From Candidatus Latescibacterota bacterium (GTDB lineage Bacteria > Latescibacterota > UBA2968 > UBA8231), in assembly GCA_965206595.1 (NCBI GenBank), contig OZ242214.1, forward strand, positions 224,001 through 288,000: a stretch of DNA of 64,000 nucleotides, read 5' to 3'. The notes below the pieces were generated by a model. The model searched no databases. It was given only the letters and a program-made list of their open reading frames with translations, and was not told the origin of the DNA. Position numbers and translations under genes: made by a program. Below, piece by piece: positions 31,315 through 33,767 of the stretch (position 1 is the first letter of the stretch; each line of letters opens with the position of its first letter).

Positions 31315-32160
31315 ATGAAAAAAGGGATCCTGTACTCCGCCTTGTGCCTGAGTGGAACTGCCCTCTTGGCATCGGAAAGCGAAGGCCAAGCTGCTCTCAC
31401 GCAGGAGGGAACGGGGTATAAAGAAATCACCATCCGCATTGGTGGGAGCCGGGCGCTGACCGCGGCTCTGCTGGACGCGGCTGCTAAGGGGGTGACAGTT
31501 ACCGGAATCGCCGGTTTTGATTCCCTTTCTGCCGTTTATGGCCTGATGGGGATATATCGCAAGGGTGTATCCTCGGGTTTTTACGGGCATCGATTACGGT
31601 TGAGATTTCCACCGGACTCCGATGTGGCGGAGATCACCGGGGCCTACCGGAACTTACCCTATATAACGGGGCGATTGGGTGCGGTGGTTTCAAAAAAAAG
31701 AGAAGCAGGGGTCGGAAGAAAACTTGTGTACGGTATGCTGGGGGGTACCGTTTGTGGGCTCGTAGGAGCGTTAACCTTATTCCCCCTCCCAACAGGAGGA
31801 GATGGTATCGGCGCAGCTGCAGGGCTCGCCATGGGTTTTGCGGGGGGCAACGTAGTTGGAACCGCAATTGGCGTTAGCGTGGCTGGAGAGGGCCTGGGTT
31901 TCCCGGGCCACTTTGCGGGCAGTGCCCTGTTGGGGGTAGGAGTTCCTGTGGCAGCTTTAGCTCATTTAGAAGCTGGGAAGATGCGTGGGACTCTAGTCCT
32001 CTTGGGTGGCATTGCAGGTCCTGTTATTGGGGCAACCTTGGCCTTGGAATTGGGGGATAGGTATCCCCCAACAGGGGACAGGAAAAACTCACGCTTTTCT
32101 TTAGGGCTGGCTCCGAATTTACAACAAGGCTTGTCGGCTTCGGCCATCCTGCATTTTTAG
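31315..32160 (+). CDS. Exported hypothetical protein A2, paralog of 29790
   Basis: KEITI...AAAKGVTVTGIAGFDSLSAVYGL...SGFYGHR...YRNLPYI; ends LGLAP...GLSASAILHF. Confidence 0.8.
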   Translation: MKKGILYSALCLSGTALLASESEGQAALTQEGTGYKEITIRIGGSRALTAALLDAAAKGVTVTGIAGFDSLSAVYGLMGIYRKGVSSGFYGHRLRLRFPPDSDVAEITGAYRNLPYITGRLGAVVSKKREAGVGRKLVYGMLGGTVCGLVGALTLFPLPTGGDGIGAAAGLAMGFAGGNVVGTAIGVSVAGEGLGFPGHFAGSALLGVGVPVAALAHLEAGKMRGTLVLLGGIAGPVIGATLALELGDRYPPTGDRKNSRFSLGLAPNLQQGLSASAILHF

Positions 32161-32189
32161 TCGCCAAACGAAAGCAACTGTCTTGAAAC

Positions 32190-33155
32190 TCAAGAGGAAT
32201 GACCGGCGATTTGGGGACTCGGGTCGCGCCAGGGCGAGCCATGCTTGAGCATGGAGTTGAGGATAACCAGCAGCTTACGCATGCAGGCTGTGAGAGCCAG
32301 CTTCTTGGGCTTACCGGCGGCCAGCAGCCGCTGGTAGAAGTCGCGGATGACGGGGTTGAAGCGGCTGGCTACCAACGCGCCCATGTACAGGGCGGCGCGG
32401 ACCCGGGCGCGTCCGCCCCAGACGATGCGTTTGCCCCGCAGGGTGCCGCTGTCCCGGTTGAAGGGAGCCACCCCTACCAGGGCGGCGATCTGCCGCCGGT
32501 CCAGGGTGCCCAGTTCCGGCAGATAGGCCACCAGGGTGAGGGAGAGCTGCTCTCCCACGCCGGGGACGCTACGCAGCAGGTTATCCTTCTCTCGCCAGAC
32601 GGGACTCTGGCGGAGCGTCTGCCGCAGACTCTTGTCCAAGTCGTCCAGCTCCCGCTCCAGCCATGCCATGTGGGCCTCGATGTGGGGACGGACGGCCAGG
32701 GTGGCGGCGGAGCTGAGGCGGTTCTTCTCCGAGACCAGCATGGTCATCACCTGGTGCCTGCGGGCCGCCAGGGAGTTGAGGACCTGGGTTTCGGCGTCTC
32801 GAAGAGGACGCACGGGAGGTTGGACGGCTTCGGCGAAGTGAGCCAGAACCGCCGCATCCAGCGCGTCGGTCTTGGCCAGCTTCCCGGTGGCCCTGGCAAA
32901 GTCCCGCACCTGGCGGGGGTTGACGACGACCACGGGCAGAGCGTCCGCTGCCAGGGCCGCCACCAGAGGCACCTCCAGGCCCCCCGAAGCCTCCAGCAAG
33001 ACCAGGACGGGATCCAGGGTCTTCAGCCGGGAGACCAGTTTTCGGATCCCTGCCTCGTCACGGGAGACCTCCCATCTGTCGCCGGTGGGACGGACGGCGA
33101 CCTCCACTTGAGCCTTGGCTACATCAATGCCTACGTAGGTTGCTTCCTGCTCCAT
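32190..33155 (-). CDS. IS110 DEDD recombinase
   Basis: [67 protein letters not shown]. Confidence 0.95.
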
Positions 33156-33164
33156 GAGTACCTC

Positions 33165-33340
33165 CTGCGAGTGCGGCCCGTCCTTGCACGATGCGGGCTT
33201 GGTTGGCCCAGGCAACTGTTCGGGCTCTATTTCGGGAAGGGGATGCGGCGACCCTCGCTTTCGTACGGTCTCCATGACCCCGGAGAAATCGGTCTGCCTC
33301 ACCCCGACCTGCCTCAGTGAAGTGGTTGGTCCATTACCGA
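33165..33340 (-). ncRNA. Putative IS110 bridge RNA (left-end non-coding region); ends approximate
   Basis: Contains segments matching the target flanks (33282-33290, 33258-33264) and the donor junction (33212-33219, 33183-33188) in the expected order and orientation. Confidence 0.75.
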
Positions 33341-33767
33341 ACCCAAGATACAAGGAGAACTCCCGATGACGTTTAAAATAGCAACCATCGCCCTGTTCAT
33401 CATGCTCGTGGTGAATGGGGCGAAAGCGACTAGTAGTGACGCTGAGAGATTGGCCAAGATGTTTTCCCCTATTTTGGTCCTGACCGAAGAGACCAGCACC
33501 GAATATGACGCGACGGAGCCTATTCGGGTAATCAAGCCGGAACCAGTTGAAATCGTAGGGGCTGGATCAGCTTCGAATATTTGGATCTATGGCAAAGATT
33601 TAGAGGATAGGCTGACAACCAATTCAGGCCCGCATGATGCTTATAGGAATTCAAATGGGGAATATTTGTCTTTGGAGTTTTTTGAGCATTCTGACGCGAA
33701 CTGCCCAAATGTGAATTTTTCGGAAAATAAGTTTGCCTTTCTTACTTCTCAATGCAGAAGGTATTTA

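Follow-up and report, generated by a model that had tools for sequence, protein, structure and literature searches.

What directs an IS110-family insertion sequence (IS) to its landing site, and does the copy found at the ribosome-binding site (RBS) of a gene in Candidatus Latescibacterota bacterium owe its position to a guide RNA of its own? The copy lies within a stretch of 64,000 nucleotides (nt) of contig OZ242214.1 (assembly GCA_965206595.1, positions 224,001 to 288,000 of the forward strand), which we call the window and whose coordinates are used below. Very probably, it is a single-copy, apparently intact bridge-recombinase IS of the IS621 type (IS110 group), the guides of which specify the 12-nt site that it occupies. 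This address has real Shine-Dalgarno (SD) content, but it is one specific address and not a general preference for RBSs.

The element and the site that it interrupts are made up of the following parts.

32175..33352, minus strand: IS110-family element proper, 1178 nt with the core dinucleotides excluded; ends set by alignment with 74 related complete elements (left end, LE, TGTATC...; right end, RE, ...ACAGTTG) and by guide matches
33353..33354, minus strand: left-end CT core, AG on the plus strand and the first two bases of the AGGAG of the gene; from sequence, alignment and guides
32173..32174, minus strand: right-end CT core; from sequence, alignment and guides
32190..33155, minus strand: recombinase gene, 321 amino acids (aa) plus stop; from Pfam and the match to the IS621 structure
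33355..33368, plus strand: remainder of the SD of the target gene and spacer, then the ATG at 33366; the open reading frame (ORF) 33366..33863 encodes 165 aa

Read on the minus strand, the element has the same CT dinucleotide on both sides. The left boundary reads ...CATCGGGAGTTCTC-CT-TGTATCTTGG, with the LE starting at 33352, and the right boundary reads ...TTGAGTTTCAAGACAGTTG-CT-TTCGTTTGG, with the RE finishing at 32175. The RE is short (15 bases beyond the recombinase stop codon), and the non-coding LE measures 197 nt, from 33352 to the recombinase ATG at 33155. Removal of the element together with one core gives the rebuilt site ...aaACGAAAGGAGAACTCCCGATG. An earlier, sequence-only reading of this locus had stated that excision at the CT cores restores the RBS of the gene at 33366 and that AAGGAGA is kept beside this gene; all strings it named were found in the sequence, and the motif remains with the gene because the LE begins with T. 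The cut is made at the first AG of AGGAG, 11 nt ahead of the ATG of ORF 33366..33863. The SD and its 8-nt spacer are thus still contiguous with the ATG after insertion, the junction being located at the 5' edge of the SD.

Four strings in the LE were proposed by the same reading as guides, and all of them are present in the order given, with identities of 8/9 (left target), 7/7 (right target), 8/8 (left donor) and 5/6 (right donor).

33281..33289, minus strand: left target guide (LTG) ATTTCTCCG; guided positions -7 to -1, in the same sense as the left target
33258..33264, minus strand: right target guide (RTG) ACGAAAG; reverse complement of CT+TTCGT, 7/7
33212..33219, minus strand: left donor guide (LDG) ACAGTTGC; identical to the final 7 nt of the RE with the core C added, 8/8
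33183..33188, minus strand: right donor guide (RDG) TGCAAG; faces CT+TGTA of the LE, 5/6

The 8/9 identity to the left target is that of GATTTCTCC at 33282-33290, and its single mismatch, already pointed out earlier, is at position -8, which is not guided in the clade of related elements (see below). The LTG agrees with the flank TTCTCC and carries a G where the core has T; at every other guided position, the guides in the window agree with their own site. The sixth RDG position could be a G-T wobble. A per-position analysis of the guides yielded ACGAAAGGAGAA (sense strand of the gene) as the specified sequence, in line with the earlier proposal. Both donor guides agree with the ends of the element itself in the window, and guides and ends of this kind are nearly invariant throughout the clade.

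Each of these matches can arise by chance if taken singly: in 200,000 mononucleotide shuffles of the LE, at least 8/9 for the left target was reached 3256 times, 7/7 for the right target 2423 times and 8/8 for the left donor 476 times. Jointly, both target matches appeared 40 times, and both target matches together with the left donor match never.

Strong evidence for guiding comes from related elements. A protein scan of one genome per species confirmed at least 568 loci, of which the best 80 were used. Their recombinases are 76-90% identical to that of the window, and all 80 are titled as Dehalococcoidia, Chloroflexota or SAR202 metagenome-assembled genomes (MAGs). The LE, both target guides and the RE could be located in 75 of 81 elements (80 loci plus the window), while six (L036, L041, L045, L046, L055 and L077) were dropped, their left ends being truncated or replaced. 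The 75 parsed elements represent 73 unique sites and 36 guide pairs, here called guide classes. The LEs of the clade are nearly invariant save for two short segments, and these are exactly where the sequence-only reading had placed the LTG and RTG.

The two variable segments follow the flanks of the individual insertions. Over the 73 sites, non-core identity of the LTG to its own flank averaged 4.99/7, compared with 2.49/7 for 4958 mismatched pairs; for the RTG, the values were 4.60/5 and 1.40/5, respectively, and 53 of the 73 sites matched their RTG at 7/7. Position by position, identity amounted to 0.77-0.95 at -7 to -3 of the left target (controls 0.21-0.63) and to 0.85-0.95 at +1 to +5 of the right target (controls 0.24-0.32), with positions -9, -8, +6 and +7 at background identity. 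The guided address in this clade, as read from these alignments, is therefore 5 + CT + 5 = 12 nt, because guiding extends over -7 to -1 on the left side and over the core and the next five bases on the right side. The same guide-flank pattern was seen in more distant elements from metagenomes, where 28 of the best 80 relatives (of at least 590; 56-81% identity) could be parsed and 19 of the 25 with a right end had an RTG match of 7/7. The nearest stand-ins for copies that share the guides of the window are the classes GTTTCTCCT/CCAGAAAG (5 sites) and GTTTCTCCT/TCAGAAAG (4 sites).

The proposed bridge RNA also has a conserved fold. A consensus obtained with RNAalifold from 36 sequences, one per guide class, comprises two stem-loops.

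33241..33304, minus strand: stem-loop 1 (target-binding loop), with a 13-bp outer stem, an internal loop and a 4-bp capping hairpin; RNAalifold
33176..33225, minus strand: stem-loop 2 (donor-binding loop) with LDG and RDG; RNAalifold, sequence nearly invariant in the clade

In stem-loop 1, the internal loop holds the LTG on its 5' side and the RTG on its 3' side, and 7 of 17 pairs show compensatory changes. In stem-loop 2, the LDG and RDG have the same layout, and the fold pairs four LDG bases with four RDG bases (helix 4); stems 3-5 vary little, and the support for this stem-loop is mainly its conservation. Altogether, 8 of the 29 consensus pairs carry compensatory changes, compared with 1.4 in column shuffles (none of 500 reached 8), and 99.0% of cells are paired; sliding the partners by 1-3 columns lowers this to 37-45%. 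Of the expectation that the guides sit in two internal loops, the comparative fold supports the part on the target guides, which it places in loop 1; the donor guides it pairs in part with each other. The wider claim of an IS621 bridge-RNA architecture is supported by the guide-flank covariation at 73 sites and by two covariation-supported stem-loops.

The protein encoded by the element fits this assignment. It combines a DEDD RuvC-like domain at its N terminus with a Tnp domain at its C terminus, with Pfam matches above the curated cut-offs to DEDD_Tnp_IS110 (PF01548, E 4.3e-25, 88.7 bits) and Transposase_20 (PF02371, E 4.7e-20, 72.2 bits). The nearest solved structures are the transposases of IS621 (8wt6_A, E 9.8e-43, residues 1-309) and ISCro4 (E 4.9e-42). 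Residues D11, E60, D102, D105 and S241, catalytic in IS621 (PMC11208158), as well as G242, are identical in the alignment of the window protein to 8wt6_A.

Finally, two hexamers that might form a promoter lie at opposite ends of the element.

32188..32193, minus strand: -35-like hexamer TTGAGT of the RE, which overlaps the stop codon of the recombinase; usable only once the element is circularised
33345..33350, minus strand: -10-like hexamer TATCTT in the LE; columns conserved

The spacing of 17 nt across the circle junction, as asserted earlier, was reproduced by counting from the sequence. Across the listed relatives, the -35 and -10 hexamers of the RE and LE are likewise 17 nt apart, and TATCTT-type hexamers recur in their LEs.

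Very probably, then, the LE encodes a bridge RNA with two stem-loops. In loop 1, the LTG (TTCTCC) reads in the same sense as the left target, while the RTG (ACGAAAG) is complementary to the right one; in loop 2, an LDG and an RDG match the ends of the element itself. By analogy with IS621, excision as a circle would join the RE to the LE and thereby create a sigma-70-type promoter, TTGAGT-17-TATCTT, from which the bridge RNA and the recombinase would be expressed. The RNA-protein complex would then recombine the CT core of the circle with one in the genome that has the guided bases on either side. The core AG coincides with the start of the AGGAG of the gene because the address ACGAAAGGAGAA is the site occupied.

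Most of these traits are shared with IS621 (E. coli) and ISCro4, namely i) a recombinase composed of DEDD RuvC, coiled coil and Tnp-Ser parts, ii) a bridge RNA encoded in the LE upstream of the gene, with guides in two stem-loops, and iii) a CT core and a promoter, putative here, rebuilt across the circle junction. The strand rules are also those of IS621, in which the LTG runs in the same sense as the left target and the RTG is complementary to the right one, and the core takes part in all four pairings (for ii, iii and the strand rules, PMC11208160). The differences are a 12-nt address that includes AAGGAG, with no repeated-element target seen; guided positions of 5 + CT + 5; and hosts that are uncultured bacteria of two phyla. 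The known mechanism is unchanged by these findings. What they add is a bridge-RNA code that can be read straight from the genome, with 36 naturally reprogrammed guide sets among close recombinases and a measurement of the positions actually guided in the clade. A similar situation is known from seekRNA elements such as ISEc21, IS110-type elements in which a non-coding region precedes tnp and natural re-direction proceeds through replacement of target-matching segments, among relatives about 72% identical (PMC11187229). The upstream non-coding region and the swapping of target segments among relatives are common to both, but 36 guide classes among recombinases 76-90% identical to that of the window form a denser natural reprogramming series.

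Several observations weigh against an intact element that found this site through its guides. As for the RNA, the single-sequence minimum free energy (MFE) fold of the LE is no better than that of shuffles (z +0.49; 135 of 200 shuffles equal or surpass it), and the placement of the loops rests on the comparative fold because the single-sequence fold is uninformative. As for the guides, 2 of 73 sites match their LTG at only 3/9 and one matches its RTG at 3/7, and the guides therefore leave some insertions unexplained; the exact guide pair of the window was found 0 times in metagenome contigs and in none of the 80 + 80 loci. As for activity, the element is present as a single genomic copy, its -35 hexamer TTGAGT differs from the TTGAC[T/A] of most relatives (which overlaps the stop codon in the same manner), and contigs of an RNA library cover parts of 32361-33219 and nothing beyond 33219, most of them differing from the window. 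No transcript start was seen, and no joint across 32174|33353 and no circle appeared in the contigs of X1, X3, X5 and X15, although contigs drop rare forms and are uninformative on absence.

A further observation of this kind concerns the site itself. Over 23 contiguous bases, CGAAAGGAGAACTCCCGATGACG, the rebuilt site is identical to the RBS and start of a gene for a NarL/LuxR-type response regulator that is duplicated in the same genome (rebuilt site 32169-32174 + 33355-33371; G000:C1:567930 on the plus and 2840351 on the minus strand), and the identity reaches about 10 nt past the guided 12-mer. The last 18 of the 23 nt have four exact copies in G002, a genome of the host genus, always at the response-regulator family (L186, L188, L190 and L191). 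By a rough estimate, in the order of 1e-5, such an identity is unlikely by chance. More speculatively, it could reflect recognition past the 12 guided bases, or the element could have carried an RBS-plus-start-codon segment to a new gene.

Among the alternatives, the one that survives best is that this copy is a fixed fossil, immobile now, with guides that record a past insertion. Its single-copy state (copy number of one in a host genome of 7,053,161 bp assembled as one contig) agrees with this, as does the departure of the -35 hexamer from the clade consensus. Both junctions are spanned by contigs of three public runs from three studies, with 0-4 differences, and these contigs showed the same junctions each time and no joint across the element; contig depth inside the element is hundreds of times that of the flanks, from related copies in other organisms. 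LE-only remnants in two genomes of the host genus, G001 and G002, indicate decay of the lineage in this genus, and a neighbouring gene is split by an 11-nt tandem duplication. On the other hand, the recombinase gene has an uninterrupted frame and retains every catalytic residue, both stem-loops and the four guides are intact, and contigs cannot reveal rare circles or empty sites. We regard immobility as less likely than not, the odds leaning clearly towards the intact element described above.

Somewhat less probable still, and in our view doubtful, is that the lineage has adapted to home to RBSs as abundant, harmless landing pads, the LTG serving as an anti-SD mimic. The sequence-only reading had leaned this way, suggesting that RBSs would offer abundant sites where insertion need not disrupt a gene. 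To assess gene starts, we used a lenient test, which asks for a start codon 3-16 nt past the core with an ORF of 80 aa or more, and a strict one, which asks for an ATG 5-13 nt past the core with an ORF of 150 aa or more. The lenient test gave the following results in the host genome.

One-mismatch sites: 9 of 23 passed
Two-mismatch sites: 97 of 304 passed
Random AG positions: 6600 of 40000 passed (16.5%)
Shuffled 14-mers with at most two mismatches: 34 of 156 passed

The excess of one-mismatch sites over random AG positions speaks for homing. Nevertheless, a gene-start enrichment of about two-fold is as expected for any address that includes AAGGAG, and the target is not an abundant one: the perfect 12-mer has only one other site in 7.05 Mb, which also precedes an ATG (near 6,049,804, minus strand). 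The enrichment of near matches at gene starts can thus be retained from the earlier suggestion, while the abundance has to be given up in favour of a specific 12-mer.

The relatives argue in the same direction. An anti-SD-like LTG is present at 24 of the 73 sites (the window and 23 others), which would suit homing. By the lenient test, 14 of 73 sites lie at gene starts compared with 3206 of 21316 random positions in the same flanks (15.0%), and 8 of 73 in the opposite orientation; divided by guide, these are 5 of 24 sites with anti-SD-like LTGs and 9 of 49 with other LTGs. The strict test was passed only by the window and by L047, L048 and L049, that is by 3 of the 72 sites of relatives, with backgrounds in their flanks of 1.9% for AG and 5.6% for AGGAG. 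The clade as sampled shows no preference for functional gene starts. Moreover, some SD-likeness appears without selection, since targets ending in the constant C-CT of the clade yield AGG when read on the opposite strand; even among the mismatched controls, 63% have C at position -3.

Within the host genus the picture differs, as all three copies or remnants adjoin an AGGAG that precedes an ATG with a long ORF, of 165 aa in the window, 166 aa in G002 and 306 aa in G001. The G002 remnant (L020:1500-1716) consists of the LE only, with 85% nt identity to the LE of the window; that of G001 (L102, minus strand) is likewise LE only, with 77% nt identity, and ends just after the RTG. Strict base rates in the host genome are 2.2% for random AG and 61 of 317 (19%) for GAAAGGAG. 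This three-of-three pattern is suggestive of homing, but n = 3 and survivorship could produce it.

It also favours homing that the LE starts with T, by which AAGGAG is always left with the gene. The claim that insertion need not disrupt the gene is correct as far as the coding sequence and SD are concerned, both of which are intact. The element, however, parts the target gene from the upstream gene 31264..32160, and no promoter-like or terminator-like site was found on either strand of 32000-33500; in a paralogous pair elsewhere in the window, only a short spacer with its own SD separates the two genes.

Homing has a precedent as well, and SD-targeting by IS110-family elements is already in print: for IS900 and IS901 of Mycobacterium avium, insertion between the SD and the start codon is reported (PMC2942039, citing Doran 1997 and Inglis 2003), and the title of Doran 1997 refers to insertion at translation initiation signals in one orientation. 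Insertion at translation start signals is common to IS900 and the present element, which differs in being cut at the 5' edge of the SD and not between SD and start codon, so that the SD stays with the gene. Landings of some IS110-family elements on translation starts could be explained at the RNA level by the constant C-CT by the cut, which reads AGG on the opposite strand. In a literature search, supplements aside, we found no paper that explains start-signal targeting of IS110 elements by a guide RNA, nor targeting of IS900 by a bridge RNA. SD-like targets might already be among the motifs given for each guide bin in Supplementary Data 2 of PMC11208160.

IS900 further contains an ORF termed hed (host-expression-dependent) on the strand complementary to its transposase (PMC8141618), and a long ORF antisense to the transposase gene is found here too (32199..33320, open). 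In the window, this is a 373-aa ORF on the plus strand spanning almost the whole element (32199-33320). It was considered as a hed-like gene and judged to be a codon-aligned shadow frame, probably not a gene: the frame is codon-aligned in 59 of 73 relatives and open in the close ones, but open over at least 300 codons in only 29 of 73.

A narrower version of the RBS reading, quite speculative and a little less probable again, is that an anti-SD-like LTG acts as a portable address: AGGAG-type RBSs exist in nearly every bacterium, and whatever host is newly entered would provide tolerated sites at the 5' edge of the SD. If true, this would help to explain both the passage between Dehalococcoidia and an unrelated phylum and the three gene-start copies in the new genus.

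The passage between phyla is itself part of the main reading. Among 168 genomes of the host phylum, nine, including the host, contain a homologue at E <= 1e-40, with a best non-self identity of 54%. Since this compares with 76-90% in Dehalococcoidia, the lineage appears to have been exchanged between phyla, and a pool shared with Dehalococcoidia is the probable source of the element. On these identities, transfer of a bridge-recombinase element between phyla would be documented within one habitat.

That chance produced the guide matches, with the target picked by the protein alone, can practically be dismissed as far as sequence can decide, given three matches that jointly never occurred in 200,000 shuffles and covariation across 36 guide classes, against which stand only the non-significant MFE fold and the few related insertions that match their guides poorly.

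In the neighbourhood of the element, two tandem pairs of paralogous genes (29745-30886 and 31264-33863) each consist of a gene for a membrane or secreted protein of 298-300 aa followed by the start of a gene for a large secreted protein; the second gene of the first pair is a 110-aa ORF, possibly truncated, and further paralogues of the pairs are found near 3.24 Mb in the genome. ORF 33366..33863 is separated from a 1535-aa frame (33752..38359, offset by two bases) by an 11-nt tandem unit, TCCGGTTTTGC, present in 2.6 copies with 100% matches at 33768-33796. It appears that a giant secreted FN3-repeat gene beside the IS was frameshifted and split by this 11-nt duplication; homologues of the downstream gene in G001 are the N-termini of open frames of up to 4515 aa. 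An empty allele was sought in relatives, where the flanking genes have no close orthologue (no match in G002, and in G001 at best 56% over residues 13-79). The G002 region that matches the upstream gene runs on into another paralogue.

Rfam contained no model for this bridge RNA, the only hits, sub-threshold and on the opposite strand, being to sX15 (RF02234, a small RNA of Xanthomonadaceae), with 29-32 bits (gathering score 55) at window 33190-33320 on the plus strand. The same model also matches four of five relatives tested (L059, L022, L095 and L020). The sX15 model may describe the LE of an IS110 element read on the opposite strand.

Two further observations were made on the insertions of relatives. 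At L039:2286-2307, the left flank is the 5' half of the target-binding loop in the same element, through the LTG; here one copy is inserted into the bridge-RNA gene of another copy, which necessarily holds a half-target. In addition, L029, L032, L033 and L044 (all from one MAG), and likewise L027 and L037, share a right flank with differing left flanks, which suggests either recombination between copies or a repeated right-hand target.

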